Assembly (NCBI GenBank): GCA_964467335.1
Contig: CAYXPX010000001.1
Location: 12,320-49,591 of the forward strand
Origin: Candidatus Woesearchaeota archaeon
GTDB taxonomy: Archaea > Nanobdellota > Nanobdellia > SCGC-AAA011-G17 > GW2011-AR18
DNA: 37,272 nucleotides
Reading direction: 5' to 3'
Under the pieces are notes generated by a model. It ran no database searches. It saw nothing but the letters and a program-made list of their open reading frames with translations, and was not told the DNA's origin. How positions within the stretch are numbered: the first letter of the stretch is position 1; every line of letters begins with the position of its first letter. Made by a program: the position numbers and the translations under genes. Positions 3,443 through 28,105 of this stretch are shown here, one piece after another.

Positions 3443-3873
3443 TTAAACAAAAACTACCAAATAGTTACTAATTGATAAGGCTGAAACATGCTCCCTCTAC
3501 GTTAGGTCCATGCATTGCCATCCAATTCCTTATCAATACAAAAATAGCATTATGCCACAGATAATTTTTTCTTAGCCATGTGACAGGCAGTCAGGAATGT
3601 AAAAAAAGTTTTTTAAGGCGTAATATCCTCTTTCGTCAGGAACATTCACGATTTTTGCTATATATTCTTCCGTATAATAGCCGTAAAAACAAATTTATTT
3701 TTTATAAATCACAAAAGTACGGCAGAATATAAAAAATTTCCTGAAAAATCATTCTAAAAAAGAAAAAGAAAAACTTATAAAGCATTTTCAACACAATTAT
3801 TTAATGGAAAAAGGGGGAAAAAGATCATTAACTGTCAGTTTTATTTCTGCTGTTTCAAAAATTTTCTCAAGGG

Positions 3874-4542: not shown

Positions 4543-4546
4543 AATT

Positions 4547-5608
4547 ATGAAAATTTTAATGTTGGGGTGGGATTTTGTGCCTTATTTTTCGAATGGATTG
4601 GATTGTCTTTCTGATGCAATGCTGAAAATTTTTTTTAAGAACAATTTTGAAGTTCATTTGCTTCTTCCGTACAGGCACAGGAATCAGGAAGCTGTTGAGC
4701 TGACAGATCTAAAGCCGGTACACTATGAATCAGCCATTAAAAATAAGGAGGAAGAAATTGATGTTTACGCATCAAGGGCAAAAAGTTTTGTCAGGAAAAA
4801 TCATTTTGATGCGGTATATTGCAACAGGTGGCTTGCCTACAAGGCAGCAGTAGAGGCAAAAAAAATCTCAGGAAAACCTCTTGTTATCCATGTAAGAAAT
4901 GCTGTCTTTAACGCCACATTTGACAGCTTAAGAGGTGATATTGAAAAAGAAGCATTCCAGAAAGCAGACAGGATAATTGTCTCTTCTGAGCATCTAAGAA
5001 GAATTTTAAGAAAAAAGTATAATATAAATGATAAAAAAATAAAACTTTTAGGATTCAATATTGCTTCTGATAATGTCACGTCAGGTAATGAAAAGAATAT
5101 CATGCTGTTTGCAGGCGGTATAAAGCAGAAGGATATGGAATATTTTGCGAGAATAGCAAAGGATGTTGTTGACTGCATTCCAGGCACGAATTTTTTTGTA
5201 GTTTCTGCAGATGAAAACCTGAAAACACTTGTCAATAGGGCGATGGATTTTAGGATAATAGATAGCATAAAACATGTAAAATGTGATACAGGGGATGATC
5301 TTAGGAAGATAGTATCAAAATCGCGGATTCTTCTTGTGCCGAACGCATCAGATGCGGCTATAAACTTCTCACTTGTCAGCTCGGGAATTCCTGCAGTTGT
5401 TGACAGGAATTCAGAAATTAAAAAAATATTTAGGAATGTAATAATCTCTGACTTTTGGGATACAAAGCAGACATCATCAAAGGTAATTTCGCTTATTAAG
5501 CACGATGATTTGGTTTCAGAAATAAAGTCCGGCATTAGTGAAGAATTAAAAAATTACAGCACAAAAGAAAGGGCGGTGGAAATTAAAGAGGTGTTTGAAT
5601 TTGGTTAA
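4547..5608 (+). CDS. GT-B fold glycosyltransferase-like protein (GT4/GT5-like, divergent)
   Basis: 353 aa. The N-terminus MKILMLGWDFVPY and the overall layout match GT4-type transferases. The region expected to hold the EX7E motif reads PNASDAAINFSLVSSGIP, so the second Glu appears absent. Confidence 0.5.
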   Translation: MKILMLGWDFVPYFSNGLDCLSDAMLKIFFKNNFEVHLLLPYRHRNQEAVELTDLKPVHYESAIKNKEEEIDVYASRAKSFVRKNHFDAVYCNRWLAYKAAVEAKKISGKPLVIHVRNAVFNATFDSLRGDIEKEAFQKADRIIVSSEHLRRILRKKYNINDKKIKLLGFNIASDNVTSGNEKNIMLFAGGIKQKDMEYFARIAKDVVDCIPGTNFFVVSADENLKTLVNRAMDFRIIDSIKHVKCDTGDDLRKIVSKSRILLVPNASDAAINFSLVSSGIPAVVDRNSEIKKIFRNVIISDFWDTKQTSSKVISLIKHDDLVSEIKSGISEELKNYSTKERAVEIKEVFEFG

Positions 5609-13313: not shown

Positions 13314-15488
13314 TTATTTTACTCCTTTTCTCTGCCTTATTTGCTGCACAACCTTCTGCTGCAATTCAATTGGCATCTTCTGGTATTCCTGGTCTGCAAC
13401 AAAGAAAGTCCCTCTTCCCTCAGTGGCGCTCCTCAATTCAGAGCTTAATCCAAACATCTCTCCGACAGGAAGTTTTGCCTTAACAACAACATAATTTCCG
13501 TCCTCCTTCATGTCAATGAGCTGTCCCCTCTTGTTTGCAATAAGTTTTGAAATTGCTCCCATGTGGTCCATAAGCCCCTCAATCTGCAGGACCTGGACAG
13601 GCTCAAATATAACAGCAGCAGCCTGCGTCATTGCCTCTCTTATGGCGTCCCTTATTGCAGGATAAACCTGCGCTGGCCCCCTGTGTATGCTGTCCTCATG
13701 AAGCTTGCAGTCATGCAGTTTAACAAGAATTTTAGCGCACGGTTCTCTTGCAAGAGGTCCGCCGTTCATCACCTGCTCAAAGCCGTCAAGCACAAGCTCA
13801 ATAACCTCTCCAAGCTGGACAATGCCCCTTGTAGCATCAACAAAAGCATTGCTGTTGTAAAAATGCCTGAAATTATGCGCTTCCTTTGTTTCAACGCCTG
13901 CCTCTACAAGCGCCTTTATTATGCTGTCATCTTTCTTTTTTATTCTTCCGCCATTTATTCTTCCCTCTTTTATAGCAGCATATATTGGATCTGGGAGCGG
14001 CTCAACAGTCAGGTAAAATTTATTGTGTTTGTTGGGCGTTTTTCCCTCAACTTCAATGCTCTTTTTGGAAACAGTTTCACGGTAAACAACAAGCGGCTGG
14101 CTTGATTTTATCTGCACGCCCTTCTCGCTTATTATCCTGTTTTCAATAATTTCAAGATGCAGTTCCCCCATTCCGCTCATTAAACATTCTCCAGTCTGCT
14201 CGTCAATCTGTATTTTTATTGAAGGATCTTCTTTTGCTGCAGCTTTTAAGACCTCAATTACTTTTGCAAGATCCTGCGGCTTTGTTGGTTCAATCGCCTT
14301 TGTGATTACAGGCTCAAAAATATGCCTCAGCTCTTCAAAAGGCTGTTCAGGTTCAAGTGTTATGGTTTCTCCTGCCTCTGCTTTAATACCTGCAAGTGCA
14401 AGAACATTGCCTGCAACAACATTCTCCATTATCTGCGTCTTGACGCCGTAATACATAAATACCTGCTGCAGTCTTGTTCTTAACTTTGCATTATTAAGAT
14501 AAATCTCAATGCCTGATTCAACAGTTCCTGAAAAAAGCCTGCCTGCAGCAATCTCTCTTCCTGTTCTCGGATCAATCATAATTCTTGTAACGCAAAAAGC
14601 AACTTTGCCGTTTTTATCGCAGTTGATTAAATTTTTTCCCAGTTCACTCTCAATATCACCGTGCCATATCTTGGGAATTCTGTATTTTTGGGCAACTAGT
14701 GGATCTGGAAGATGCTTGATTGCCATGTCAAGAATTACTTCATAAAGAGGTGCATTCTCCCATACCCATTTCTTCCTCTCCTCTTCAGGCATTTCATAGA
14801 TTTTTAGTATGTCTTTGAATGTAATGCCCTTTTTCTGCATAAATGAATAAGAGAGCGCCCAGTTCTCCCTTGCACTGCCGAATGCAACGCTTCCCTCTTG
14901 TATGCCAACCTTCCACTTTTCTTTGTAATCAGGTTCTGCAATCTGTTCAACAAGCCTGTTAAACTCTATTATTATTTCAGTAAATCTTTTCTGGATCTGC
15001 TCAGGAGTATACTGCATCTCTTTTATCAGCCTGTCAACCTTGTTCAAAAACAAAACAGGTTTTACTCTTTCTCTCAATGCCTGTTTTAACACAGTCTCCG
15101 TCTGTGGCATTATGCCCTCTGAAGCGCATACTAAGACAATGGTGCCGTCAATAGCCCTCATGGCTCTTGTGACATTCCCGCCAAAATCAACATGACCGGG
15201 AGTGTCAATAAGATTGATTAAATATTCTTCGCCACCATATTTATGAATCATGGAAACATTTGCTGCATCAACAGTCATTAATCTCTCCTGCTCGTCAGTA
15301 TGCTGCCATGTTGCCATGCCTGCATCAAGATCGCCTGCAGATTTTGTGCTCATCAAGCCCGCTGCTGCCAAAAGATTGTCAGTCATTGCCGTTTTTCCAT
15401 GGTGTATGTGGGCACTGGTGCATATATTTCTGATAAATTCAGGCCTGTTCATTGCCTTGCCAAACATTTTTACTGGATCATCTGCCAT
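13314..15488 (-). CDS. fusA: translation elongation factor 2 (aEF-2)
   Basis: AHIHHGKT P-loop, LIDTPGHVDFGGNVTRAMRAIDG, NKVDRLI, and the diphthamide-region HEDSIHRGPAQ. The start is placed at ATG 15488, 22 nt downstream of TTTATATA; the ORF track starts at 15500. Confidence 0.92.
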   Translation of the reverse strand: MADDPVKMFGKAMNRPEFIRNICTSAHIHHGKTAMTDNLLAAAGLMSTKSAGDLDAGMATWQHTDEQERLMTVDAANVSMIHKYGGEEYLINLIDTPGHVDFGGNVTRAMRAIDGTIVLVCASEGIMPQTETVLKQALRERVKPVLFLNKVDRLIKEMQYTPEQIQKRFTEIIIEFNRLVEQIAEPDYKEKWKVGIQEGSVAFGSARENWALSYSFMQKKGITFKDILKIYEMPEEERKKWVWENAPLYEVILDMAIKHLPDPLVAQKYRIPKIWHGDIESELGKNLINCDKNGKVAFCVTRIMIDPRTGREIAAGRLFSGTVESGIEIYLNNAKLRTRLQQVFMYYGVKTQIMENVVAGNVLALAGIKAEAGETITLEPEQPFEELRHIFEPVITKAIEPTKPQDLAKVIEVLKAAAKEDPSIKIQIDEQTGECLMSGMGELHLEIIENRIISEKGVQIKSSQPLVVYRETVSKKSIEVEGKTPNKHNKFYLTVEPLPDPIYAAIKEGRINGGRIKKKDDSIIKALVEAGVETKEAHNFRHFYNSNAFVDATRGIVQLGEVIELVLDGFEQVMNGGPLAREPCAKILVKLHDCKLHEDSIHRGPAQVYPAIRDAIREAMTQAAAVIFEPVQVLQIEGLMDHMGAISKLIANKRGQLIDMKEDGNYVVVKAKLPVGEMFGLSSELRSATEGRGTFFVADQEYQKMPIELQQKVVQQIRQRKGVK

Positions 15489-15510
15489 GAAGTTCCGCAT
15501 TTAGGAATCG

Positions 15511-15518
15511 TATATAAA
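15511..15518 (-). promoter_or_regulatory. TATA box (TTTATATA) for aEF-2
   Basis: 22 nt separate it from ATG 15488. Confidence 0.45.
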
Positions 15519-15541
15519 CCTTTTGGAGAAAATTCGTTAAG

Positions 15542-15549
15542 TTTATATG
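15542..15549 (+). promoter_or_regulatory. TATA box (TTTATATG) for the 67-aa ORF
   Basis: 22 nt separate it from ATG 15572. It is divergent from the aEF-2 promoter. Confidence 0.4.
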
Positions 15550-15571
15550 CAAAAAGAAACTAAAACTAAAT

Positions 15572-15775
15572 ATGAAAAAAGATAAGGAAAGTTCAGTGCA
15601 GGCAGCCTTGGAAGAAGCAGTATTTATTCTTAATGAGATTAGGATAAATAAAGTAAAAAAACTTGAGGAAACAAAACTTACACCAAAGCAGGAAAAAATA
15701 CTTGAAGAAATTGAAAATGATATTAATGCATGTGTCACAAAATTAGGCCTTCTTCTTCATGCAAAAGAATTATGA
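15572..15775 (+). CDS. small helical hypothetical protein
   Basis: 67-aa ORF. TTTATATG lies 22 nt upstream of the ATG. Coiled-coil-like composition. Confidence 0.35.
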   Translation: MKKDKESSVQAALEEAVFILNEIRINKVKKLEETKLTPKQEKILEEIENDINACVTKLGLLLHAKEL

Positions 15776-15838
15776 GTTGATTTATTGTTTATTTTATACT
15801 AAATAATCTTGTTATAATTTCTGTGGCTGAAATGTTGT

Positions 15839-15855
15839 ATAATTCCTGTTAGTTT
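15839..15855. repeat. 17-nt direct repeat copy 1 (ATAATTCCTGTTAGTTT)
   Basis: Exact match to 17500-17516. It is intergenic, upstream of the 114-aa ORF. Confidence 0.8.
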
Positions 15856-15882
15856 CTCAGAATGAAATGAGGAACTGAAAGG

Positions 15883-15890
15883 TTTATAAA
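15883..15890 (+). promoter_or_regulatory. TATA box (TTTATAAA) for the 114-aa ORF
   Basis: 22 nt separate it from ATG 15913. Confidence 0.45.
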
Positions 15891-15912
15891 GTTTAATCTC
15901 AAACCAATTAAT

Positions 15913-16257
15913 ATGGTAAGACCACTTGAGTATAATACTGGATTAAATTTGCAAGAAGCAGAAGAAAGATACAGAGAAGTAAGGGCTGAATTTGAAAAAG
16001 TTAAATCCCATTATTCTGGATTATTGGGGAGATTTAAAAAAAATTTGTGTGAAGGAGATAATAAAACATTAGTTGACTGTACAGGAGTTCTTCTGCCATT
16101 AGGAATGGAAGCTTCAGTTCAAGATCAAGTCAGGCAAACACAAAGTATTGAAGATACATTACACTATCAAATTGGGCAACTTAATTTTCAGATTATAGAT
16201 TATCTTGCAAATTTCAAAAATACTGGAGTTACAAGATGGTTCGAGCGAACATTGTAG
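15913..16257 (+). CDS. hypothetical protein (114 aa)
   Basis: TTTATAAA (15883-15890) lies 22 nt upstream of the ATG. Helical N-terminus. No family recognised. Confidence 0.45.
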   Translation: MVRPLEYNTGLNLQEAEERYREVRAEFEKVKSHYSGLLGRFKKNLCEGDNKTLVDCTGVLLPLGMEASVQDQVRQTQSIEDTLHYQIGQLNFQIIDYLANFKNTGVTRWFERTL

Positions 16258-16344
16258 GCTTTTTGATAGTACTTAAGATGGTCCCCTCCCATTCTAGACC
16301 CTAAAACCATTAATAATTTAAGTAATCGCTGTTTAATAATATAG

Positions 16345-17490
16345 ATGGTAAAGCTCTACGGAATAACACATAGTGCAAGCATAAATTCATTATTTTTTTC
16401 TATGCCTATAAATATTTCCCCTGCTCCAGAATTACTAGAAGATCTTGCAGAGCTTCCCAAAAGTTCAAAAATTGGTATTGAATGGATTGGAGAAACTGGC
16501 TGGCAGGAAGTCCAAGATGATTTAATGGGAAGAAGTTTTGATGCTGGATTGCAAGAGATCCCATTTTTTGATGACTTGGTTTCCAATTACTGGAGAATTA
16601 TAATTAATGAATTGCAGAGGCATTGTTTACACCCTGTTTTCTTGGAAAATAAAGATGTTTGGCTAAAATATAATCAAGCTGTTGTTGCTTTAGCAAAAGA
16701 AAGGCAGAATCAATTGTTTCATGGAGGAGAAGATGATAGAGATTATCATGAAAAATTATGCAGGCATAATGAAGCAAGAAAAAAAAGAGTTTTGGTCGCA
16801 AGGAGAATTCATGAGATTGAAAGAGACGAAGTTTTACTTTCTGCAGTTTCATCTGGGAATTTAGATGCTGCTATTGTTGGTTATGGACATGCAGATTATT
16901 GGATTGCAAATAAACAAAGAATTCAGCAACAAACAGGCATAATCTTTGATTCTTATTCCAAACAACAGCAAAATGGAAAAGGTTATCCGCTAACAGTCTT
17001 TGTAAGAAATGCAGAGCCAGACAAAAATATTATTTATCAGAGAAAAAGTCTTGAAAGGGCAATTAGATTAATGGAGCAGGGGAGAATTGCTGAAGGCACA
17101 CCAGATTATATTGGAACTTGGTGTGATTATGAGCCATCACAAGGGTATTTTGAAGTTTTTGTCCGTAAAAGAGATGGTGAAGATATTTCTGGAGTTATTG
17201 AGGATGTTTTAGGAAGTGCAACATTTAGTGGTAGAGTTAATAAAAAAGGCATTCAATTCACTAAAAATTATACTGATGCTTCGCCTGAAGCCATTAGAGG
17301 AGAAATACCGTACGAAGCAGAAAGAACAGGACAAGAATTTTATGGATTTTTCAAAGTCTCTGGTTTTAGAGCTCCATTTTATTTAATTGAAGCTGATAAA
17401 AAAGAACCTATTGAAATGGGCATAAGGTTGTTTGAGTTATTTCATCCAGGGAGAGTGCCAAATACAATTTTTCTTAGTGCCTCCGAGTAA
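16345..17490 (+). CDS. TraB/PrgY/Tiki-superfamily-like N-terminal domain fused to an uncharacterised beta-rich C-terminal domain
   Basis: Three N-terminal motifs match the family: LYGITHSAS (compare GTAHVS), IERDEVLLSAV (compare ERDxxM) and AIVGYGHADYW (compare VVGxGHxxG). The C-terminal ~140 aa has a G-x-W...G-x-F...F-x-K-x-Y strand pattern and is not assigned. Confidence 0.45.
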   Translation: MVKLYGITHSASINSLFFSMPINISPAPELLEDLAELPKSSKIGIEWIGETGWQEVQDDLMGRSFDAGLQEIPFFDDLVSNYWRIIINELQRHCLHPVFLENKDVWLKYNQAVVALAKERQNQLFHGGEDDRDYHEKLCRHNEARKKRVLVARRIHEIERDEVLLSAVSSGNLDAAIVGYGHADYWIANKQRIQQQTGIIFDSYSKQQQNGKGYPLTVFVRNAEPDKNIIYQRKSLERAIRLMEQGRIAEGTPDYIGTWCDYEPSQGYFEVFVRKRDGEDISGVIEDVLGSATFSGRVNKKGIQFTKNYTDASPEAIRGEIPYEAERTGQEFYGFFKVSGFRAPFYLIEADKKEPIEMGIRLFELFHPGRVPNTIFLSASE

Positions 17491-17499
17491 TAATTCAAC

Positions 17500-17516
17500 A
17501 TAATTCCTGTTAGTTT
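17500..17516. repeat. 17-nt direct repeat copy 2 (ATAATTCCTGTTAGTTT)
   Basis: Exact match to 15839-15855. It starts 10 nt after the stop of the 381-aa ORF. Confidence 0.8.
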
Positions 17517-17622
17517 AGTCTGACAGAAGGGAAGACCCAAATTTTATTGCAACGTTCCTAAGGAAAATTTTATATTTTAAGAGCCAGAGCTTTTATCAAT
17601 AATCTGCGAAGCAGACAATATT

Positions 17623-18033
17623 CTAGGGGTGCCCACTTATTTTACTTAATTCGTGTGTATTATGGACTTTTATTTTATCTTGCTCTTTTAGTCTCTTGTC
17701 ATTACTCCAAATGGCACAATTCAGTTTCAATGCAAGTGCAAAATAAGCCATGTCAGCAGGGTCAGGAGTAATCTTTTTTGCTTCTCCAACATAAGAAATA
17801 ATTTCTTCCAGAGGAACAATAACAATTCTTCGCTTTAATGTTTCAAGTAGTCTGAAAAATTCTTCTTCTGTTCGTTCTGTTTTCTCAAGAAGTTCCTCTT
17901 TATGCTTTTCCAATTCTGTGAAAATATATTCTGGAGTAAAGAGGTGAAATGAACCGCTAAAGAGAAGATTGTAAGCAAAGCTATCTTTAATCAAAACTGA
18001 AAATAGAACATTGGCATCAATGACGAGAACCAT
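17623..18033 (-). CDS. PIN-domain toxin (VapC-like)
   Basis: MVLVIDANVLF, FTELEKH, DPADMAYFALAL and IWSNDKRL supply the four acidic PIN residues. The start lies 2 nt after the upstream antitoxin stop. Confidence 0.75.
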   Translation of the reverse strand: MVLVIDANVLFSVLIKDSFAYNLLFSGSFHLFTPEYIFTELEKHKEELLEKTERTEEEFFRLLETLKRRIVIVPLEEIISYVGEAKKITPDPADMAYFALALKLNCAIWSNDKRLKEQDKIKVHNTHELSKISGHP

Positions 18034-18035
18034 AT

Positions 18036-18266
18036 TTACCTCGCCAGTTTACGCAACCTATCACTTACAGATTTACTAACCTCTTTTCCTAATCTCAAAG
18101 CGTCAGCTTCACTAAGCTTGCTTTTCTCTTTGAATTTTCTCAGAAACTCCATATCATCTATTTTCTGTATGAATGCTTGCCGAGCTACTTCAGACCAATT
18201 CATCTCTGGAAAAGAATCCATCTTCTTCTTCATCTCATCTGGAACAGCTAAAGTTAGGGTTGTCAT
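18036..18266 (-). CDS. RHH-type antitoxin (VapB-like)
   Basis: 76 aa. LTLAVPDEMKKKMDSFPEMNWSEVARQAF is the common archaeal antitoxin N-terminus. GGAGGT lies 6 nt upstream of the ATG. Confidence 0.6.
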   Translation of the reverse strand: MTTLTLAVPDEMKKKMDSFPEMNWSEVARQAFIQKIDDMEFLRKFKEKSKLSEADALRLGKEVSKSVSDRLRKLAR

Positions 18267-18280
18267 TTGAATACCTCCTG

Positions 18281-18310
18281 TATTATGTGTATATAATTAT
18301 ATTATGTGTA
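18281..18310. promoter_or_regulatory. two direct TATTATGTGTA repeats in the vapB-like promoter region (putative operator)
   Basis: 11-mers at 18281-18291 and 18300-18310 flank an AT-rich TATA-like stretch, 15-45 nt upstream of the antitoxin ATG. Confidence 0.4.
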
Positions 18311-18438
18311 AGTATTTAAATGTTTTTGTTGGTTAAATAGTTACTTACAAATAGTAACATAATATAAAGATTTATAGAGATGTAGTTTATTTATATTTAA
18401 GAAGAATAAAATGTTTAGAAGTAAAAAAGTTCCATCAT

Positions 18439-18448
18439 CTTTATATAT
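18439..18448 (+). promoter_or_regulatory. TATA box (CTTTATATAT) for the 243-aa ORF
   Basis: 23 nt separate it from ATG 18472. Confidence 0.45.
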
Positions 18449-18471
18449 GGGTATTCCTCTTTTATGATTTA

Positions 18472-19203
18472 ATGTTAGCATTACTTAAAAGAAAAATAGA
18501 TCCAGAACAAGCGAGAGTTGAAATTTCTGATGTAATTGAAAGGATTGAAGTAACTGCTTTTCCGATAATGCGAAGTTTTTATGTTGGGAAAAAAGTTGAT
18601 CCTGCTTTGGAAAAAGTTAATCCTGAACATAGAATCAGATTTTTATCTGATTCAAGGAGGGAATTAGGCTATCCAGTTAGTGAAGATGAATTATTCGTTC
18701 CAAATTATGCACGTCAGGAATTTCATTTTGATGTTGGATGTTCCGCTTTTTATCTTGCAGAAGGAACTCTTGTTCTTCCGGGATTGTCCGATAGGACTTA
18801 TGGATTAAAATTTGGGTTACCAACGCATCAATCACGTGAGCATTGGTGGTTTTTGAGATTGAGAGAGAAAAGTAATTCATATCATGGTTGCTCGGGAAAA
18901 AGAGTTGTTAAAGAATTATTAGAAGGTTCTGGAATCTCTGTTACAGGAGATGTTTTTCAAGTTGCTGGGATGGTAGCAGAGAATATCATGTTACATATTT
19001 TGGGACCTAAAGATGATGATGGACAATTGTTGGGGAGACAAAGAGCCCAAAATTTAATTGAAAAGGGATATGGAGCAGCAAGAGAAACCTATAAAGGATT
19101 AATGGAAAAAAGATTAAAACAAGGAATTTCAGAGAGATTACTTCCAGAAACCTTTGTGTATGAATTGGTAGGAAATACAGAGATAAATCCTCTTAACCAT
19201 TAA
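18472..19203 (+). CDS. hypothetical protein (243 aa)
   Basis: CTTTATATAT (18439-18448) lies 23 nt upstream of the ATG. No family recognised. Confidence 0.45.
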   Translation: MLALLKRKIDPEQARVEISDVIERIEVTAFPIMRSFYVGKKVDPALEKVNPEHRIRFLSDSRRELGYPVSEDELFVPNYARQEFHFDVGCSAFYLAEGTLVLPGLSDRTYGLKFGLPTHQSREHWWFLRLREKSNSYHGCSGKRVVKELLEGSGISVTGDVFQVAGMVAENIMLHILGPKDDDGQLLGRQRAQNLIEKGYGAARETYKGLMEKRLKQGISERLLPETFVYELVGNTEINPLNH

Positions 19204-19237
19204 TTCTATTCCATAAGCTTCTTTTTGTTGCCGCTAA

Positions 19238-19840
19238 TTACCTGCTTGAGGCAGCCTGTCTCTCAAGTTCAAGTTTTTTTGCTATTGCTTGGCTTCCTGC
19301 CTGGTCACCTCTGTAAGCAGCTAGAATTTCATCAGCAAGAGCCTGTGCAAGAGTCTTCTTCTTGCCAAAACTTTTGCTGTATGTCCCCTGAGTAAACTGC
19401 CTTAATGCAATGTCAACTCTTCTTTGCGGTGCGCAGTCAACAGCCTGCGGATATCTTGCTCCGCCGTATTCAATGGTTGTAATCTCCTCCCTTGGAGCTG
19501 CATTTTCCAGGGCTTTTACAAAAACTGCAACAGGATTTTGTTTTATATTTTGTTCAATGATTTCAAAGCACTTTCTTACAGCATTATAGACGTTCATGCT
19601 CTTGCCTGTCATATGGCTGCTCGTCCTGAAATGCTTTTTTCCCTTGTGTCCGGGCACCATAAGTTTGTTCATAAGCCTCTCAACAATATTTAGTTTGCTC
19701 TTTGCAAACCTCTGATTTGCATTCCTTCCAAAGCTTCTTGGAACTAGGACAGGATTAAGACCGATATATTTTCTAAGTCCAGGATCCTCTACAAAAACAT
19801 CTTTTATATCCCACATTCCAAATATTTTGAATTCAGCCAT
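19238..19840 (-). CDS. rps7: 30S ribosomal protein S7 (uS7)
   Basis: LVPRSFGRNANQRFAKSKLNIVERLMNKLM, and ENAAPREEITTIEYGGARYPQAVDCAPQRRVDIALR. The start is placed at ATG 19840 (MAEFKIF); the ORF track starts at TTG 19852. Confidence 0.92.
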   Translation of the reverse strand: MAEFKIFGMWDIKDVFVEDPGLRKYIGLNPVLVPRSFGRNANQRFAKSKLNIVERLMNKLMVPGHKGKKHFRTSSHMTGKSMNVYNAVRKCFEIIEQNIKQNPVAVFVKALENAAPREEITTIEYGGARYPQAVDCAPQRRVDIALRQFTQGTYSKSFGKKKTLAQALADEILAAYRGDQAGSQAIAKKLELERQAASSR

Positions 19841-19863
19841 AATCCAGGGCAAATGTCTAAAAT

Positions 19864-20631
19864 TTATAAGCTTTCTGTTTCAAAATCCAGCTTTATCTCA
19901 GTGCTGTAATATGTAGCGCCGCCTGTAAATCTTATCGTGCATATGAATAATCTTGTTTTTTCAGGAACACCGTTGATTTCAAGGTAATATAATGCAGTAT
20001 TATTGGGAAAGTAATTTCCCTTAAGCACAACCTTGTTTTCATCACCCTCGAAATAGTCCTTCATGGAAATATTGTTGTAAACATCCTTTTCATTTTTCTC
20101 ATCATAATAAATAACATTAGAATCTATCCGCCTGCATGTAAAGGAAGAAGACAAACTGCTTAATGGGAGCTCGCCGATGTTTTCCATCTGTGATTTTAGT
20201 ATGCTGCTTCCTGTTACAATAAAATTATCCTCGTTTAAAGTGCATCTTCCCTCGCAGCTGAATTCAGACAGCGTTAGAACGCCAGCGCAGGTTCTTGGGC
20301 AGTCTAAAGGACAGACCGTCATATGGGTTTCATCATTGCATCTCTCTGAAAAATCGCAAAAGCCGTCGCCGCAGCATGTTTCAAGTCTTTTATACTCGCA
20401 TTTTCCAGTTGCCTCATTAAAAACATCATCTGTGCAATCATTGTTGTCATCACACGAGGGAATCTCAAAAGCCTCTTCGTCGTCAGCATTCTCTTTAAGT
20501 GAATCATCAGAAACATTTTCAGTGGCATTGCCAACATCAGCATCTGATATGCTGATTTCTTCAGAAGGACTTGCACAGGCTGTAAAAAAAATTGCAAGGC
20601 ATAAAAATAAATAAAATAAAACTTTTGGCAT
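19864..20631 (-). CDS. Cys-rich secreted lipoprotein-like protein
   Basis: Signal peptide with a lipobox-like FTAC, then an acidic linker. A Cys module follows (CDDNNDCTDD...CEY...CCGDGFCDFSERCNDETHMTVCPLDCPRTC), then a beta-rich C-terminal domain. The ATG shares one base with the rps12 stop (TAATG). Confidence 0.6.
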   Translation of the reverse strand: MPKVLFYLFLCLAIFFTACASPSEEISISDADVGNATENVSDDSLKENADDEEAFEIPSCDDNNDCTDDVFNEATGKCEYKRLETCCGDGFCDFSERCNDETHMTVCPLDCPRTCAGVLTLSEFSCEGRCTLNEDNFIVTGSSILKSQMENIGELPLSSLSSSFTCRRIDSNVIYYDEKNEKDVYNNISMKDYFEGDENKVVLKGNYFPNNTALYYLEINGVPEKTRLFICTIRFTGGATYYSTEIKLDFETESL

Positions 20632-21068
20632 TATCTCCTGCCCTTCTCAATCTTGCCGCTAAGCAGGGCATTCAGGCTCTGGTCATTTACCTTTATAACC
20701 TGCCACCTTACACAGGGAATATCACCTTTTGCCCTTCCCATCTTGCCGCCGATGCACTCAATAATAACCTCGTCATGCTCATTAATAAATCTCTGTGCAT
20801 TGTCTCCTGGAATAAATGCAGTAATCTGTTTTCCGTTTTTCAATAGCTGAACAACACACGCCTTTCTCATGGCACTGTTTGGCTGCTTTGCCTCAAGCTG
20901 CCTTTTCTCAAGAACTATTCCCTTTGCCTGATGTGCTCCCTCAAGAGGGTCAGCCTTCGCCTTAAGATTCAGTGCTCTTTTAACAAACCATTTATTGCTC
21001 CATCTGGCCTTTTTCCTTCTGTTTTTAAGTCTCTTTCCTGTCATTAAGCCATTGGACTTGTTTCCCAT
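20631..21068 (-). CDS. rps12: 30S ribosomal protein S12 (uS12)
   Basis: [46 protein letters not shown] and [22 protein letters not shown]. Confidence 0.93.
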
Positions 21069-21086: not shown

Positions 21087-21106
21087 GGTGTTTAATAAAT
21101 CTTGTT
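21087..21106 (-). promoter_or_regulatory. BRE/TATA-like promoter element upstream of rps12 (identical 20-mer)
   Basis: Same 20 nt as at 3423-3442, lying 18 nt upstream of the rps12 ATG. Confidence 0.5.
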
Positions 21107-21108
21107 GT

Positions 21109-23565
21109 TTAATCTCTGTATCTAAGTCTTACAGCAACTGTATATCCTGTACCGCCGCCACCGCCGTCTCCGCCTCCATCACCACTATGACCTCCTCCGC
21201 TATCTCCGCCAGAATATCCTCCCTCTCCTCCGCTATAACCTCCGCCTCCAAATCCTTCACCAGAATATCCTCCGCTCCCTTCGCCCCCGCCACTAAAGCG
21301 GTAACTTCCCTCAGAACCTCCTCCGCTAAAGTAAGATTCATATCCTTCAGGAGGGCTAAAACCTTCAGGTACTGAAAATCCCTCTCCATATGGTCCGCCA
21401 ACATATCCCCCGCTAGTGTAGGCTTCATAAGCTCCGCTGTCTATCTCTCCCCCATGCTCAAAGTAAGCCTCATAACGCCCCTCCCTATCCTCTTCACTTA
21501 AAGAAAATACCTCGCCAAATATTCTCTGTCTGTCCTCTTCAGAATATGAACTTCTGAATTCTTCTCTATGGCTGTCAAATCTCCCAAGCATCCCGCTCAC
21601 AGAACTTTCATAGGTTCCAGCGCGCTCTGGATGTGCAGTCAAATAATCTTTTTCAGGACCGTCAGGCAATGAATCAACTCCCCCGGCAAGATAAGCCTCG
21701 TAAGCCTCTCTAACACTCTCAACATGTGCAGCAACATCAGGAACAACAAAGAACTCAGGCCTCCTGTTGAGTACATCAGGATTATTCTCGACAAAATAAG
21801 CAGCCTCCTTTCCAAATCCAAACTCAGCATGCTCAATCAAAAACTTCTCATATTTTTTAGTCATCTCAGGATTAATATTCTCAAGTCTCTTTGCCTCTAC
21901 GCTGAGGTCATCTGCCAGATTTGGGTTATCATCAAGATAAGAAGCATAATCTTTTTGATAAGTTACTAAATAAGTTTCACGGAAGTTCTTAAAATCTTCA
22001 GGATTTTCAGAATCTCTCATTGCATCTATAAATTCATGAGGAATATTCTCAACAGGAGAAAATGTTAATCCTGTGTCTATGAATCTCTCAAAATTATAAT
22101 AGTCAATAGCATCAGGAACATCATTGCCGTTTGCATCATCATCATCCTCGTTCAATTCTCCGTCGCCGTCAATGTCATCGTCATCATAATCATAAATTCC
22201 ATCATCATCAGTATCAATAAAATCACCATAGTTTTCAGCAACTTCATCCCTGTGTTCATAGATATCATCTAAATTGCCTGAAAATGTCAGGCCATCTTCA
22301 ACTCCATCTCCATTTATGTCATCATCCTCTCCATTCAGAATTCCATCGCCATCAAAATCACCGCCGGCAAAATCATCAAACTCCTCAATATCATCTGTGC
22401 CGCTTCCGTCAGCATCGCTATCTTCCCAGTCAACTATGCCATCATCATCAAAGTCATTGTCAGGCAGCGTAACAGCAAAAATCTCAAGTCTCTGCCCGTC
22501 ATATTCCTCCTGGCTTATTAATCCATCGCCGTCGCTGTCAGTAAATCCTAAATCTGTTAATTCAGTCTGTCTTTCTTCACTGTTTATATCAGCCTGAATT
22601 GGGGCAGGAAATATGCTGGGCCTCTGTTCATCATATTCATCAGCATCAATAAGACCATCGCCGTTTGTATCAGTAAATCCTATTTCCCTTAGTTGGTTTT
22701 GACGGTCAACACTATCTATTATTTCTTCTATATCATCGTCAAAAAGTCCATCGCCATTCCAGTCATTCTGGATATCGCTTTCGCTCATAGGCTGACCATT
22801 CCAGTCATACAATCCGTCGCCGTCAAGATCAAAGTCATCCTCATTAACAACTCCATCACCATTAAAGTCAGCATCCTCCATAGTCATTCTGCCGTCTCCA
22901 TTCAGGTCATCATTGTCTCCATCCCCGTCAGGGTCAGTATCAATATCATCAGGAATCCCATCACCATCAAAATCTCCAGGACCAAGGTTTGTCTCAAAAT
23001 CATCTGAAAAGTCTCCTGTATTTTGTTCCAGTTCACTAAGGTGCTGCTCCATAACATCCAAATGGCTAAGCAGTAGGGTATTGCCGCTTTCCTCAGCAGC
23101 GCTTCTCATTTGTTCTAAAATTGCTCCAAGTTCATCAATCTCAACATTAAGCTCAAGCAGGTAATTATCAGCAGTTTCCTCAACACCCTCTGAAAGCTGG
23201 TCATCCAGCTCATCAACATAGAATGAAATTGTGTTGCTTGTATATAATCTTCTGATTCTTAATGCAGCGTCCATCACAGCAGGATCTCTTGATTCAATTG
23301 CAATATTAACCAGGGCATTAACATCATCACTAAGTTTATTATCAGATTCCCTGACACCAGAAAATGATTCCTTGAGGTTATCTCTTTCAATAGCACTCAA
23401 TGCAGGAGCAACATTATCTGCTCTTAATCCTGACAATGAAGAAACACTCTGTGCTTCCTCCTGGGTTTCAGCCTCTTCACTAACCTGCTGCTGCTGACAG
23501 GAAGCCAAAATTAAAATCAAAACTAGAAAAAATACCCAAAATACGCCATATCTTTTTTTAAACAT
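21109..23565 (-). CDS. large hyper-acidic secreted lipoprotein-like protein with DxDxDG calcium-binding-type repeats and a Gly/Ser/Tyr-rich tail
   Basis: The start is placed at ATG 23565 ([23 protein letters not shown], with lipobox-like LASC), with a TATA box 23-24 nt upstream. Many DFDGDG, DPDGDG, NGDG and DIDGDG loops are present. There are two FTD(T/S)(N/D)GDGLI..EEYD units. The C-terminus is made of GGYSGG-type repeats. Confidence 0.65.
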
Positions 23566-23588
23566 AGAGTATTTCAAGAAAGCAAATA

Positions 23589-23633: not shown

Positions 23634-24044
23634 TTAAGCAACAACCACAGTATCAGAAACATCGAAATAATTTTTGATAATTTTATTTATTTTTTTTAAA
23701 TTTTCCCTGTTCCTGCCGAGAATCCTGCCCCTCAAAAAAGAATCGCCGGCACGTATCTTCAAAGTTTTTTCTTCAAGAAAAATTTCATCAGCCTTGATTG
23801 GATATATTAAATTTGCAGCAAACTTGCAGACATCGTCTGAAAATGCCAGAATTTTAACTCTTTTTTTTAGGATATCTGAAATTTTTTTGATATTTGAATT
23901 GTTTTTTCCAATTGCGATTTTCACATTTCCAGTTTCAACAAGAAAAACAAGAACATCACTGTCAAAAAAGCAGTCCTTCAGTTTTGCTCCAGTAAGGCTC
24001 TCAAAAAGATTAATGTATCCTATCGACTCTGTTGTAAGTTTCAT
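23634..24044 (-). CDS. nusA: archaeal NusA-like protein (two KH domains)
   Basis: 136 aa. YINLFESLTGAKLKDC and GRILGRNRENLKKINKIIKNYF. It sits in the conserved position after rpl30e. Confidence 0.8.
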   Translation of the reverse strand: MKLTTESIGYINLFESLTGAKLKDCFFDSDVLVFLVETGNVKIAIGKNNSNIKKISDILKKRVKILAFSDDVCKFAANLIYPIKADEIFLEEKTLKIRAGDSFLRGRILGRNRENLKKINKIIKNYFDVSDTVVVA

Positions 24045-24286
24045 TATTCAATGCCGATTACTGAAATAGAAAATGGTTTTTTGCATAAAACCCCAAAATC
24101 CTTGCTGTTCTCGCCTGCAAATTCTGCCTCAACATTGAACTTTTTGCATAAATCAGAAATATGTTCTTTCATGTGTGAATTTGAGGCAACGTAAACCTTC
24201 TTTATTTTCTGATTTTTTATTTTCTTGACTGTTCTCTCAAGCCCGAATACAAGTTTTTTATTTTTAATGTCATTTTCAAGGCTCAT
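24044..24286 (-). CDS. rpl30e: 50S ribosomal protein L30e (short)
   Basis: 80 aa with an L7Ae/L30e-like layout (KLVFGLERTVKKIKNQKIKKVYVASN...LCKKPFSISVIGI). It sits in the conserved position between rpoA'' and nusA and overlaps both neighbours by a few nt. Confidence 0.7.
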   Translation of the reverse strand: MSLENDIKNKKLVFGLERTVKKIKNQKIKKVYVASNSHMKEHISDLCKKFNVEAEFAGENSKDFGVLCKKPFSISVIGIE

Positions 24287-25401
24287 TTCTGCACCTTCAT
24301 TTTTGCTGTAAGCCCCGGAAGTCCTGTGCCAAGGGGAACAGGCTGGTTTATTATAACATTTTCAACAACGCTTCTCAGGTTGTCAACCTCTCCTATAAGG
24401 CTTGCATTCACAATGTGTTTTATCGGAGTTTCAAAGCTTGCTCTTGCAATCACGCTTTCCTTCTCGCCTGTAATGCCTGTTCTTGTAACTCCCTTTATCT
24501 CTCCGCCTCTTGTCATCACATCAGCAAGAAGCATTATGTGCCTTATGTCAACGTCAATGCCCTGGTCTTTTAATTCTTTGGAAGATTCCTCTATGACTGA
24601 TTCTCTTGCAGCCTCAATTCCAAGAACCTCTCCTATTTCAAAAATATTGTTGGTTGTTATTCTGGAAGTATCAGCCTCCTCAAGAGCAAGGGCGTCCTCT
24701 AAATTGCTGCCTGCACAGTGTATGACATAGCTGCCGTCATCTTCTTTTACAGGCAGAACATGCGTAATTCCCTTTAGGCCCATTATGTGTGTATTCTTTG
24801 CCTTTTCCTTAATTTTGTAAATTTCTGAGATTGGCAGCTCTTTCTCTTTTGGCTTTATAATAAATCCGTTGTCAAGATCCTTGATCTCAACGCCCTTCAT
24901 TGCCTCTTTGAGTGTATCGTAAATAAACTTTTGTTTAAGTTCAAGCTCTCTTGTCTTTTTTCTGTCAAGTATAATCTCTACGCTGCCCTTTGCAACGTTT
25001 ATGGAAATTTCCTGTGCGATGTCGCTGAGTTTTGTCTCTTTTATTTTCATGGCAACAAGCCTTACATCTTCGGTTGTTTTTGAAAATTTTGGTTTTATCG
25101 GTATCTTCATTTTTGGGGTGCTCGGCCTTTTTCTTGCATCAAAAATTTCTATGAGTCTTGGCAGTCCTACAGTGACCTGCATCTCTGCAACGCCTGCAAA
25201 ATGGAATACATTAAGTGTCAGCTGAGTGGCAGGCTCTCCAAAACTTTCAGCAGTGACAATTCCAATGGATTCCCCGGGATCAATCTTTGCATTCTCATAT
25301 TTTTCATCAACTCTCTTTTCAATTTCCTTTTTGTCCCTGTCAGAGATATTGTATTTCTTGGCATACTTTTCAATTTTTTCAGATAGATGGAATGGCAGCA
25401 T
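24283..25401 (-). CDS. rpoA2: DNA-directed RNA polymerase subunit A''
   Basis: Trigger-loop region GESIGIVTAESFGEPATQLTLNVFHFAGVAEMQVTVGLPRLIEIFDARK. The C-terminus ends with INQPVPLGTG. Confidence 0.92.
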   Translation of the reverse strand: MLPFHLSEKIEKYAKKYNISDRDKKEIEKRVDEKYENAKIDPGESIGIVTAESFGEPATQLTLNVFHFAGVAEMQVTVGLPRLIEIFDARKRPSTPKMKIPIKPKFSKTTEDVRLVAMKIKETKLSDIAQEISINVAKGSVEIILDRKKTRELELKQKFIYDTLKEAMKGVEIKDLDNGFIIKPKEKELPISEIYKIKEKAKNTHIMGLKGITHVLPVKEDDGSYVIHCAGSNLEDALALEEADTSRITTNNIFEIGEVLGIEAARESVIEESSKELKDQGIDVDIRHIMLLADVMTRGGEIKGVTRTGITGEKESVIARASFETPIKHIVNASLIGEVDNLRSVVENVIINQPVPLGTGLPGLTAKMKVQK

Positions 25402-25402
25402 C

Positions 25403-27673
25403 TTAGCTTAGCACCTCTCTTATTATTCTTGCAACATTAATCTTCCCGCCCTCTGTTTTTGAAACATCAAGGCCATCCTCGCCGTATAAAAATTGGATGA
25501 TATTCTGCTCAGCATCTCTCACAGTAGAATCATATTCCACTTTTATGTCCTGCAGTGCGCTTGACAGTCTCCTGTAAAGATATCCTGATTTTGGAGTTCT
25601 TAAGGCAGTGTCCATAAGTGAGTCTCTTCCTGTCATTGCGTGCATAAAATATTCCTCAGGTGAAAGCCCCTCTTTATATCCCCTTTTTATAAAACCCTTT
25701 GCCCTTGGGCTCAGGTCATTTTTTTGAAATATGCACAGTGTCCTGCCCCTGTATCCTATGTCAATCCTTTTTCCCCTTAATGCCTGTAAGCCGACGCATG
25801 CAGCCATCATGGAAAGATTCATGTTGCTCCCCTTTGCTCCTGAATTTGCCATGAGAATTGTGGAATTTTCCTCAAGGTCTGCTTCAGCAATAATTTCTCC
25901 AGTACGCTGCCTTGCCTTGTTCAGGACTTCCATGATTTTAATTTCAAGCGTATCCATCGTGCTTAGCCCCGGAAGGGCATCAAGTTGTTTTGATTTGTAT
26001 TGTTCAATAAGCTGGCTTACTCTTTTTTCAGCATTGTATATTGTCTCTTTGCATTTGTCAGATACTTCTTTCGGAAGGTCTGTATCGCTTATGGAAGTTG
26101 TAAATCCATGCCTGAGCAGCACTCCTATTCCAAGTCTGAAAATCTTTCCAAGTATATCAAGACCGACATCAGCACCGTACTTTGCATACACAGCTCTTAT
26201 CAAGTCTCCCTTGTCTTTTCCAATTGTTGCCTTGTCAATCACTCCTTCAGTTAAAAATCCATTCTTTACAACAACAGCCTCCTTTGATTTTGAATGGCCT
26301 ATGAAACTAAAGTCATCAGGCAGCAAAGCGCTGAAAATCTCCCTTCCGTCAGCTGTTTTTTTGAACTTTTCAAATCTTTCAGGCCTGAAAACTCCAACGC
26401 TGTGAAGAAGCTGTATCGCATCAGCCCTGTCCATCTTAATGTCCTTTGTTAGAATGTAATTGCCAGTAACAGCATCGTCGCTGCATCCAACAACATGGGT
26501 TTCATCAGTTATTTTTTTCTTTTTTCCGTCAGGCCTTATAACATAGTTGCTGCCTGGATATTTTTTTGGGCCGTTTTCCACAAATTTTTTTAGTCTCTTA
26601 AGATTCCATTCAGTAACCCTTTCAGGTGTAGTAAGCTCCATTGCAACAACAAGCGGGATGCCGACCTCATTAAGTTCTATTTTTGAGTCAGGACTTATGA
26701 CAGTTCTTGCAGCGTAATTAACTCTTTTGCCGGCAAGGTTGTGCCTGAATCTTCCCTCCTTGCTTTTTATCCTTTCAGTAAGTGTTCTTAATGCCTGCCC
26801 GCTCCTGTGCCTTGCAGGAGGAATTTGGCTTACCTCATTGTCAAAATAAGTTGTAATATGATACTGCAGTAAATCCCAAAGATCTTCTATAATAATCTCA
26901 GGTGCTCCTGCATTTATGTTTTCAAAAAGTCTCTGGTTTATTCTTACAATATCTCCAAGCTTGTGTGTCAGATCATCTTCACTCCTTTCGCCTGTTTCCA
27001 GCGTGATGCTCGGTCTTATTGTAACAGGAGGCACTGGAAGTATTGTTAAAACACCCCACTCAGGTCTTGCATATTCAGGATTCAGTCCGAGGAACGCAAT
27101 ATCACTATCGCTTACTCTCTCAAGTCTTGTCCTTATATCAATAAGGTTCAATCTCTTGTCGCCTTCAAGAAATGTAGTCGGCCTCTCAAGTTTTATATTT
27201 TCCTGCTTTGCACTGCAGTGCTGGCACTTTTTTATATTCTTAAGTGAATTTCTAATGCTTTTGGCCTGCTTTTGTGTAGATACTTCAACCTCAGGATTTT
27301 CTCCTGCATTTTCCTCTTCTACAGTTAGTCTTGCCTTGCTGTCAGCTAGAAGCTTTCCGCATTCTCTGCATGTGCATCTTAAAACTCCGAGTATTATATC
27401 AGCGTATTTAATATGTATCACAGGTCTTGCCAGATCAAAATATCCAAAATGCCCCATGCAGTCCCTCAAATTTCCTCCGCATGTTTTGCATCTTAAGCCG
27501 GGATCAATGACTCCAAGTCTCACATCCATCAGCCCGCCGTCAACAGGATAGCCCTCTCTGTCATAAAGTTCAGGTGTAACTATTTTCGCAACAGCCATCT
27601 TCTTTATCATTGTAGGTGAAAACATCCCGAAAATTATGCTGGTTATTTTTTTGTATACGTATGTTTCTGCCAT
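25403..27673 (-). CDS. rpoA1: DNA-directed RNA polymerase subunit A' (atypically short; active-site segment not found)
   Basis: Zn-ribbon/clamp motifs (CKTCGGNLRDCMGHFGY), LPVPPVTIRPS, EDDLTHKL, GKRVNYAARTVISPD, and funnel/cleft motifs (SGAKGS, MTGRDSLMDTALRTPKSGYLYRRL). The start is placed at ATG 27673. The NADFDGDEMN region is absent (see findings). Confidence 0.85.
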   Translation of the reverse strand: MAETYVYKKITSIIFGMFSPTMIKKMAVAKIVTPELYDREGYPVDGGLMDVRLGVIDPGLRCKTCGGNLRDCMGHFGYFDLARPVIHIKYADIILGVLRCTCRECGKLLADSKARLTVEEENAGENPEVEVSTQKQAKSIRNSLKNIKKCQHCSAKQENIKLERPTTFLEGDKRLNLIDIRTRLERVSDSDIAFLGLNPEYARPEWGVLTILPVPPVTIRPSITLETGERSEDDLTHKLGDIVRINQRLFENINAGAPEIIIEDLWDLLQYHITTYFDNEVSQIPPARHRSGQALRTLTERIKSKEGRFRHNLAGKRVNYAARTVISPDSKIELNEVGIPLVVAMELTTPERVTEWNLKRLKKFVENGPKKYPGSNYVIRPDGKKKKITDETHVVGCSDDAVTGNYILTKDIKMDRADAIQLLHSVGVFRPERFEKFKKTADGREIFSALLPDDFSFIGHSKSKEAVVVKNGFLTEGVIDKATIGKDKGDLIRAVYAKYGADVGLDILGKIFRLGIGVLLRHGFTTSISDTDLPKEVSDKCKETIYNAEKRVSQLIEQYKSKQLDALPGLSTMDTLEIKIMEVLNKARQRTGEIIAEADLEENSTILMANSGAKGSNMNLSMMAACVGLQALRGKRIDIGYRGRTLCIFQKNDLSPRAKGFIKRGYKEGLSPEEYFMHAMTGRDSLMDTALRTPKSGYLYRRLSSALQDIKVEYDSTVRDAEQNIIQFLYGEDGLDVSKTEGGKINVARIIREVLS

Positions 27674-27675
27674 TT

Positions 27676-28104
27676 TCAAACTCTTGCATAACCTCCGGCT
27701 GTATTTGGTCTGATTGTAACGATCTTGTGTGCTTCTGTGCCGCTGAATATTACTCTGCCTGAATTAAATAAAACAGATTCGATTCCTGCCAGATCTTCAA
27801 TAAGGCTCTGAGATAGAGAACTTAAAATTCTGTTGGCTAGTTCATCCTCAGTTGGAGTTTTTCTTTTGATTTTATCAGCAAATTTTAAAAAAGAAAAAAC
27901 ATCATCATGAGCTTCAAAAAGCCTTTCAGTTCCATAGATATAAGGCACAGAAAATGTAATGGTTTCCTCTCCGCGTGAAAGAGCAAGACCGTCAGCAGGA
28001 GGAAAAATAATAACCCCATAACTTGTTTCATGGCTGTCTTTCTCATCTAAGACAATATATGGAAATCCTCCAGCATCTCTTAGTTTATATTTAGGTAAAT
28101 TCAT
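27676..28104 (-). CDS. hypothetical 142-aa protein embedded in the RNA polymerase operon
   Basis: The ATG at 28104 lies 1 nt after the rpoB' stop and 8 nt downstream of AAGGAG. Its TGA stop lies 2 nt before the rpoA' ATG. No family recognised. The ORF-track start at 28146 would overlap rpoB'. Confidence 0.55.
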   Translation of the reverse strand: MNLPKYKLRDAGGFPYIVLDEKDSHETSYGVIIFPPADGLALSRGEETITFSVPYIYGTERLFEAHDDVFSFLKFADKIKRKTPTEDELANRILSSLSQSLIEDLAGIESVLFNSGRVIFSGTEAHKIVTIRPNTAGGYARV

Positions 28105-28105
28105 T

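Follow-up and report, generated by a model that had tools for sequence, protein, structure and literature searches.

Why does a gene for a predicted surface protein stand between rps12 and rps7, and how are the three genes expressed? The canonical archaeal rpo-str order is rpoB-rpoA′-rpoA″-L30e-nusA-S12-S7-EF-2, with rps7 immediately after rps12. This is not what is found in the 37,272-nucleotide (nt) stretch of Candidatus Woesearchaeota archaeon DNA analyzed here (contig CAYXPX010000001.1, positions 12,320 to 49,591; the whole stretch is called the window, and positions are counted from its first letter). The rps12 stop and the rps7 ATG are 790 nt apart (19841-20630), a distance taken up by a 768-nt open reading frame (ORF) and a 23-nt spacer. 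This gene, termed X, starts with ATG and occupies positions 19864-20631 of the minus strand; it encodes a lipobox-type, Cys-rich, predicted membrane-tethered protein of 255 amino acids (aa). Its neighbors, also on the minus strand, were identified by Pfam and NCBIfam as rps12 (uS12, 145 aa, 20631-21068; PF00164, E=8e-38; archaeal uS12 equivalogs, E=1e-60) and rps7 (uS7, 200 aa from the ATG at 19840, 19238-19840; PF00177; archaeal uS7 equivalog, E=3e-72). A sequence-only reading of the same DNA had described a 255-aa gene sharing a base with the rps12 stop and ending 23 nt before the rps7 ATG, and its coordinates proved exact (the X stop ends at 19864). That reading went on to state that X must be co-transcribed with both ribosomal protein genes, which is not supported, given a conserved promoter-like element before rps7 and the lack of a Shine-Dalgarno (SD) site at rps7. 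The explanation that we favor, and consider probable though far from assured, is that X is a captured surface gene translationally coupled to rps12, with a separate promoter serving rps7.

The link between X and rps12 is tight. The TAA of rps12 (20633-20631) and the ATG of X (20631-20629) share base 20631, forming TAATG at 20629-20633, and an SD-like AGGAG lies in the last rps12 codons, 4 nt upstream of the X ATG (20635-20639, minus strand). The pair thus combines a stop/start overlap with a ribosome-binding site inside the upstream gene. The SD scan, which assumed the canonical archaeal anti-SD sequence and exact matches of at least 4 nt, returned GGAG at this place. No promoter-like element was found upstream of X in the window (matrix score −4.5; the matrix is described below) or in the other loci where X overlaps or closely follows S12 (−4.5 to 3.8). 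Given the overlap, the AGGAG, and the missing promoter, the best reading is that X is expressed from the rps12 transcript by translational coupling, as had been proposed before. A TAATG or ATGA overlap of S12 and X is present in the window and in loci L001, L003, L004, L005, L007/8, and L096, and the two genes are separated by 11 nt in L100 and by 31-33 nt in L017/L101. In L017 and L101, the X-family gene has a strong TATA-like element directly after the S12 stop (scores of 10.2 and 10.8 at −33 and −35), which suggests that the position is conserved and that a tricistronic transcript is not obligatory. The sequence-only reading had itself named such a separating promoter in relatives as the observation that would count against it.

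A BRE/TATA-like element (BRE, transcription factor B recognition element), AGATTTATTAAA (21091-21102, minus strand; score, 9.7), starts 34 nt before the rps12 ATG and is not followed by an SD site. It belonged to the training set of the matrix. The element is conserved in L001, L003, L004, and L008, and it occurs in L005 as TTTATAAAA. An 18-nt promoter-like string, CAAGATTTATTAAACACC, is common to rps12 (about 21089-21106) and the prolyl-tRNA synthetase gene (about 3431-3448; gene at 1961-3406), both on the minus strand and at nearly equal distances from the ATG. Within X, a run of eight T residues on the sense strand (20584-20591, minus strand) lies 41 nt into the gene, in the signal-peptide codons. 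Since archaeal transcription can be terminated by oligo-T tracts, this one could act as an attenuator of the rps12 transcript. T runs of at least 6 nt are found on the sense strand of 14 of the 31 window genes, including rpoB′, and the run in X is not distinctive.

To score promoter-like elements, we listed the 60 nt ahead of every window gene and built a 10-nt matrix, A-R-A-n-T-T-A-T-W-W, which covers the BRE and the beginning of the TATA box, on 16 promoter-proximal genes other than X and rps7. Ahead of rps7, where the sequence-only reading had seen no TATA-like element, a BRE/TATA-like element, AAGCTTATAAATT (19861-19873, minus strand), spans the last two codons of X and its stop and starts 33 nt before the rps7 ATG. 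The 3′ end of X reads ..AGC TTA TAA ATT.., and the promoter-like element AAGCTTATAAAT covers its last codons and stop. Within this stretch, TTATAAAT (19868-19861), preceded by AAGC, overlaps the last codon and the stop and extends into the spacer. The matrix match AAGCTTATAA, at −33 to −24 of rps7, scored 7.4, a value within the top 0.16% of window positions; the probability that a random 15-nt window scores at least 7 is 0.028, and for at least 7.6 it is 0.020. This layout agrees with a purine-rich BRE plus a TATA-like octamer centered about 26 nt upstream of the start, and the position of the element agrees with that in 12 other promoter-proximal window genes. Window genes with an element starting at −28 to −37 have no SD site, except for an antitoxin gene (TATA-like element plus GGAGGT), and genes abutting an upstream gene have SD sites of the GAGGTG/GGAGG type. 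A TATA-like element without an SD site points to leaderless or near-leaderless mRNAs. For rps7, the anti-SD scan returned no SD-like site upstream. In these features, rps7 resembles the first-gene class and X the operon-internal class, and rps7 probably starts its own leaderless mRNA.

The rps7 element is also retained in relatives. It is kept in all four lineages in which X overlaps S12, at −32 or −33 and with scores of 7.4 to 8.3. In L096 and L100, whose X proteins are about 32 to 38% identical, GTTTTATAA lies just after the X stop, again at −33 of rps7 (score, 7.5), and the fact that the motif has moved with respect to the stop codon argues for constraint. The 50 insert-free relatives, in which S12 abuts S7, have a median score of −0.5 at the equivalent place, and a single one reaches 7. 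Where X overlaps S12 and S7 is present, the X-S7 spacer measures 22-33 nt, and the rps7 ATG at 19840 is conserved among orthologues. An in-frame TTG at 19852 was considered as the rps7 start and rejected, as it would add four residues that lack conservation, and a start at the ATG gives the N-terminal length of the relatives.

X itself is a real gene under purifying selection, well beyond what is expected of a chance ORF. A search of 5.8 billion proteins returned six clusters of homologues at 40-75% identity, and a profile search of 1.84 billion cluster representatives extended the family to 109 clusters at E≤1e-3. About 50 of these relatives are full length (208-343 aa, most of 210-280 aa). 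Against four orthologues, the ratio of non-synonymous to synonymous substitution rates (dN/dS) is 0.22-0.35, and 13 residues are invariant among 50 family members (eight Cys, G88, E96, and N151-x-G153-E154), which agrees with the coding status assumed in the sequence-only reading. At the level of regions, the acidic linker has nearly equal proportions of non-synonymous and synonymous differences (pN and pS), with pN/pS at about 0.25-0.39 in the Cys module and the beta domain; the linker thus evolves neutrally, and the two modules are constrained. Between the window and L001, dN is 0.258 for X, 0.021 for S12, and 0.093 for S7 at the same synonymous distance, so the non-synonymous rate of X is about 12 times that of S12. 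The X protein had no match in Pfam or NCBIfam, and a profile search of PDB sequences with the family returned nothing below E=0.2. In species-representative genomes, no full-length relative of X was found, and the Cys module alone was matched by proteins of Planctomycetota, Myxococcales, and Deltaproteobacteria. The family is uncurated, being absent from Pfam and NCBIfam, and is found on archaeal contigs, several of which derive from groundwater metagenomes. A DPANN or episymbiont label may apply to these organisms and rests on context, such as related contigs from 0.1-μm groundwater filter fractions.

What kind of protein X encodes can be read from its four regions, all on the minus strand: a signal peptide with the lipobox-like FTAC (residues 1-19, 20575-20631), an acidic disordered tether (residues 20-57, 20461-20574), a 12-Cys module (residues 58-131, 20239-20460), and an immunoglobulin (Ig)-like beta-sandwich (residues 132-255, 19867-20238). 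An AlphaFold2 model, run on the 50-sequence family alignment, had a predicted local distance difference test score (pLDDT) of 88.9 overall and above 90 for the mature domains. The N terminus is laid out as a signal peptide, with Lys3 and a predicted helix at residues 3-17. Lipoboxes were defined as [L/V/I] at −3, [A/S/T/V/I] at −2, [G/A/S] at −1, and Cys at +1 (PMC12462473). Among 50 family members, 43 have [G/A/S]-Cys at residues 16-25 after a hydrophobic stretch, 23 of the 50 with a fully canonical lipobox, and the remaining 7 have an N-terminal hydrophobic, longer transmembrane anchor. The X orthologues carry the canonical LAGC or LVGC or else FAGC, LFGC, or IYGC. DPANN and Euryarchaeota are reported to have lipobox proteins and the lipidation enzyme AliA as widespread features (PMC12462473); the scanned proteins of the window included none that was AliA-like. 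The tether holds 13 D/E and 1 K/R and has a pLDDT of 52-60.

The Cys residues of X number 16 (positions 11, 19, 60, 66, 78, 86, 87, 92, 98, 107, 111, 115, 126, 130, 166, and 231). Fourteen of them lie beyond the lipobox Cys, namely 12 in the module (residues 60-130) and a Cys166/Cys231 pair in the beta domain, which also carries the invariant N151-x-G153-E154. The figure of about 16 given in the sequence-only reading for the module is therefore right for the protein as a whole and too high for the module, whereas its acidic linker, its beta-rich domain, and its extracellular-type product all found support. The module reads CDDxNxCTxD... and then CCGDGxCDxxERC...H.TVCPxDCPR.C; it was modeled with a pLDDT above 90, and all 12 of its Cys are invariant across seven close homologues. 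In every family member examined, the number of Cys beyond the lipobox Cys is even (10-20), which fits full disulfide pairing outside the cell; in X, seven disulfides would be expected, Cys166-Cys231 among them. The C-terminal half was modeled as a beta-sandwich of nine strands within residues 125-250 (pLDDT of 95-98). Foldseek searches of PDB and viral models matched it to the GH123 N-domain, HAP2 D3, GAE, NPC2, and DUF4426 with a probability of 1.0 and template modeling (TM) scores of about 0.3 (query normalized) and 0.4-0.62 (target normalized). These matches place the domain at the level of the Ig-like beta-sandwich fold and single out no specific family. Taken together, the assignment of X as a membrane-tethered surface protein is well supported by these predictions. 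Lipidation and surface location are predicted, and functionally X may be described only as a putative cell-surface protein; any binding or adhesive role, such as the adhesin of an episymbiotic archaeon about which the sequence-only reading speculated, would be conjectural.

The arrangement extends well beyond this window. The S12-X-S7 order, which the sequence-only reading had proposed to check by synteny, recurs in more than 15 independent assemblies (NCBI, ENA, JGI, and Logan) at 25-100% protein identity. In the close clade (P0002, P0004, P0005, P0006, P0009, P0012, and JGI contig L016), every readable X contig has X directly after rps12 and all but one have it directly before rps7. The exception is L005/L006 (P0007), in which X follows rps12 but a spacer of 236 nt and then a gene for a different secreted protein (MVKRIIIFGIVFLILLSSIASA...) come after it (L005, 1341-1807); the contig ends before any rps7 was found. 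A family member only 25% identical to X stands between S12 and S7 in L017, whose S12 is 84% identical, and in L101. S12 identities of 100, 97, 91, 86, and 84% pair with X identities of 75, about 60, 32, 40, and 25%, and this parallel divergence points to mostly vertical inheritance. A single capture of X was considered and not established: a neighbor-joining tree of the family, built without support values, groups the S12-overlapping members, yet P0020, which is not linked to S12, sides with the L017/P0044 group.

Other family members (P0014, P0022, P0036, and P0020) are encoded away from ribosomal genes. Three of these four carry their own promoter-like element (scores of 8.3-10.0), and the genes of P0022 and P0020 come immediately after genes for further proteins with a predicted secreted or surface location, which hints that X-family genes outside the ribosomal cluster sit in cell-surface gene neighborhoods. 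The two X-family genes that directly follow predicted envelope proteins come after a 387-aa lipobox protein with a weak beta-helix match (L102, 1834-2997) and after Asn/Thr-rich proteins with C-terminal transmembrane anchors (L098, 3-2188). As for the junction without X, we collected 80 loci with S12 relatives, 64 of which have both genes and no X. The near-universal adjacency of rps12 and rps7 assumed by the sequence-only reading applies to most of these, since S12 and S7 are separated by at most 15 nt in 50 of the 64, usually with an ATGA-type overlap, but it does not hold throughout. Unrelated small ORFs occupy the junction in L044 (78 and 141 aa, 3938-4596), L031 (90 aa, 3577-3843), and L055 (63 aa, 3938-4126). 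No signal peptide was found in them, and the two L044 ORFs had no Pfam match. In L026, L070, and L083, the gap measures 134-274 nt and contains no clear ORF. The S12-S7 junction thus seems to be usually tight, yet a recurrent insertion site in this archaeal group.

These observations can be assembled into a mechanism. X would be a functional gene for a small extracytoplasmic protein in which a disordered acidic tether carries a 12-Cys module knotted by disulfides and an Ig-like beta-sandwich that has another Cys pair, the whole being anchored to the membrane by a lipobox Cys in most family members and by an N-terminal transmembrane helix in a minority. A copy of this family would have been captured into the rps12-rps7 junction in one clade, where it would have taken the place that rps7 has in relatives, at the stop/start overlap and the SD-like site with which rps12 ends. 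X would most likely be translated from the rps12 mRNA by coupling, so that its output would track that of rps12. The rps7 gene, displaced 0.8 kb downstream, would most likely be expressed as a leaderless mRNA from the BRE/TATA element in the 3′ end of X, and read-through into rps7 from upstream may occur as well.

Several points weigh against this account. No more than 16 upstream regions, all from this window, went into the training of the promoter matrix, and the X-bearing loci are related, so that retention of the rps7 motif is partly inheritance. The 23-nt spacer between X and rps7 has no run of five or more T residues, and S7 may also ride on the S12-X transcript, on which the in-frame TTG at 19852, conserved upstream of the S7 ATG, might serve as an alternative start. 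Promoter use, coupling, and read-through are all predicted from motifs. On the protein side, the Phe at −3 of FTAC falls outside the canonical [L/V/I], and the generic Ig-like Foldseek matches support no specific biochemical role.

The closest opposite of a separately promoted rps7 is a single obligatory S12-X-S7 transcript with no internal promoter, which would hard-wire a surface protein to two ribosomal proteins. The overlap of the X start with the S12 stop, the X-S7 spacer of merely 22-33 nt with no T5+ run, and the conservation of the arrangement over deep divergence all speak for it. It has to contend, however, with the conserved promoter-like element at −33 of rps7, a score reached by 1 of 50 insert-free relatives, with an S7 that lacks an SD site, unlike the operon-internal genes of this genome, and with the strong TATA-like element that X itself has after the S12 stop in L017/L101. 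We regard such a transcript as unlikely. A frozen accident, in which X is functional but its position has no regulatory meaning and is kept since the junction tolerates inserts and excision would harm the embedded rps7 promoter, is a serious possibility that we place somewhat short of even. It would account for the unrelated small ORFs at the junction in L044, L031, and L055 and for family members that manage elsewhere without ribosomal neighbors, and the overlap of the rps7 promoter-like element with the X stop codon would make excision costly. The cluster is also eroded in this clade, with an 822-aa insert, an ORF between rpoB′ and rpoA′, and EF-2 displaced by 3.7 kb; the 822-aa insert and the variable rps7/EF-2 content favor a permissive, eroded cluster. 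On the other hand, the S12 stop/start overlap (TAATG or ATGA) is retained in most lineages, which suggests that coupling is maintained. A frozen accident and selected growth-coupled expression would both agree with the sequence.

Two further explanations concern the nature of X rather than its position. That X is a cytoplasmic ribosome- or translation-associated factor would be suggested by its place between rps12 and rps7 only, whereas 50 of 50 family members have a hydrophobic signal with a lipobox-like Cys or a transmembrane anchor, the 14 conserved Cys come in the even numbers typical of disulfide-bonded extracytoplasmic domains, relatives elsewhere lack ribosomal neighbors, and X evolves about 12 times faster than S12 (dN of 0.258 versus 0.021); we consider it highly improbable. 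Still more improbable is a spurious ORF or an assembly chimera: the lack of a Pfam or NCBIfam match would be expected of one, but the same arrangement in more than 15 independent assemblies, the purifying selection, the confident fold prediction, and the 109 family clusters would not. Both the cytoplasmic ribosomal role and the artefact are effectively excluded. Returning to the captured surface gene with coupling to rps12, its widest extension would be that the clade, probably of ultra-small archaea, ties a fast-evolving surface lipoprotein to ribosome synthesis via uS12 coupling, so that the dosage of a surface or attachment component would follow growth rate, and that the junction is a recurrent landing site at which each capture is offset by a new leaderless rps7 promoter. 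We offer this extension as speculation and lend it little credence.

The components of the locus are of known kinds, namely archaeal lipobox proteins, Cys-rich repeats, Ig-like domains, and non-ribosomal genes in ribosomal clusters. In Haloferax volcanii, lipidation of lipobox lipoproteins depends on AliA/AliB (PMC12462473). Like Sec-type archaeal lipobox lipoproteins, X has a signal with positive charge and a hydrophobic stretch, after which come a small residue and Cys at positions 16-25; it differs from them by its residue at −3, its mature domains match no characterized lipoprotein family, and its lipidation is predicted. The start of the X module, SCDDNNDCTDDVFNEATGKC, shows the same Cys/Asp/Asn/Thr pattern as the Dictyostelium CTDC repeat (PF00526, C-x-D-x-N-x-C-T-x-D-x-C). 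In a Pfam scan that otherwise returned noise, Dicty_CTDC matched 14 of 50 family members (best E=4.4e-5) and did not match the X of the window even at E≤1, indicating a family-level resemblance and not membership. Unlike CTDC arrays, X has a single copy, fused to a CCGDGxC...ERC...CPxDCP motif and an Ig-like domain. The similar module of Planctomycetota and Myxococcales covers residues 59-126 of X only.

As to gene order, secY and adk are ancient and near-universal non-ribosomal genes embedded in the spc ribosomal cluster. X resembles them in being a non-ribosomal, envelope-related gene inside a ribosomal cluster, apparently on the transcript of a ribosomal gene, and differs in its restriction to a narrow clade (S12 identity of 84% or more), in evolving fast, and in splitting the S12-S7 pair with an apparently compensating S7 promoter. 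We found no description of a conserved S12-S7 pair split by a surface-protein gene with such an rps7 promoter, and none of the X protein family. The locus amounts to a modest curiosity of gene order; its three genes do not form a hard-wired unit, and it changes no general principle. If the favored account is true, it is a clear natural example of remodeling at one of the most conserved gene junctions of prokaryotes, in which the coupling site of an essential ribosomal gene passes to a lineage-specific envelope gene and the ribosomal gene gains a promoter in the last codons of the newcomer. Members of the X family could serve as surface markers or as candidates for the study of host attachment.

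Around this junction, all genes of the canonical rpo-str order are present, in that order and on the minus strand: rpoB″ (29910-32903), rpoB′ (28106-29908), rpoA′ (25403-27679), rpoA″ (24283-25401), L30e (24044-24286), a nusA-like KH protein gene (23634-24044), rps12, rps7, and EF-2 (13314-15500). Compared with that order, the cluster is interrupted four times, by the ORF between rpoB′ and rpoA′, by the 822-aa gene between nusA and rps12, by X, and by 3.7 kb with a VapBC-like pair between rps7 and EF-2, which do not adjoin. The 822-aa gene (21109-23577, minus strand) is a clade-specific insert with its own, weaker TATA-like element. Its product, which has about 818 aa if the likely start, an ATG at 23565, is used, is very acidic. 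It has LILILASC as a lipobox-like signal and numerous D-x-D-G-D type repeats, and its Gly-rich C terminus ends in RLRYRD; it had no match in Pfam or NCBIfam. In L001, L004, and L016, a homologue lies at the corresponding place, and L003 has coding sequence for a matching C-terminal peptide upstream of S12. The gene is not at that place in more distant relatives, in which nusA lies just upstream of S12.

Between rps7 and EF-2 (15501-19237) lie two genes on the plus strand, a VapBC-like PIN toxin/antitoxin pair (17623-18266), and an unknown gene of 243 aa. The content of this interval varies in relatives, with an IS605 OrfB/TnpB-like gene in L001 and a common 67-aa minus-strand ORF in L003, L004, and L017. 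Scans of the whole window returned no Rfam family, and no tRNAs were found in it. The 426-nt gap between rpoB′ and rpoA′ is occupied by an ORF of 142-156 aa (27676-28146, minus strand) without a Pfam match, apparently one more insert that is specific to the clade. The rpoB″ gene contains an intein at about residues 451-954, recognized by NCBIfam intein N- and C-terminal models. In L001 (1-3258), an intein is found in rpoA′ instead, and the rpoA′ of the window (758 aa) is free of one.

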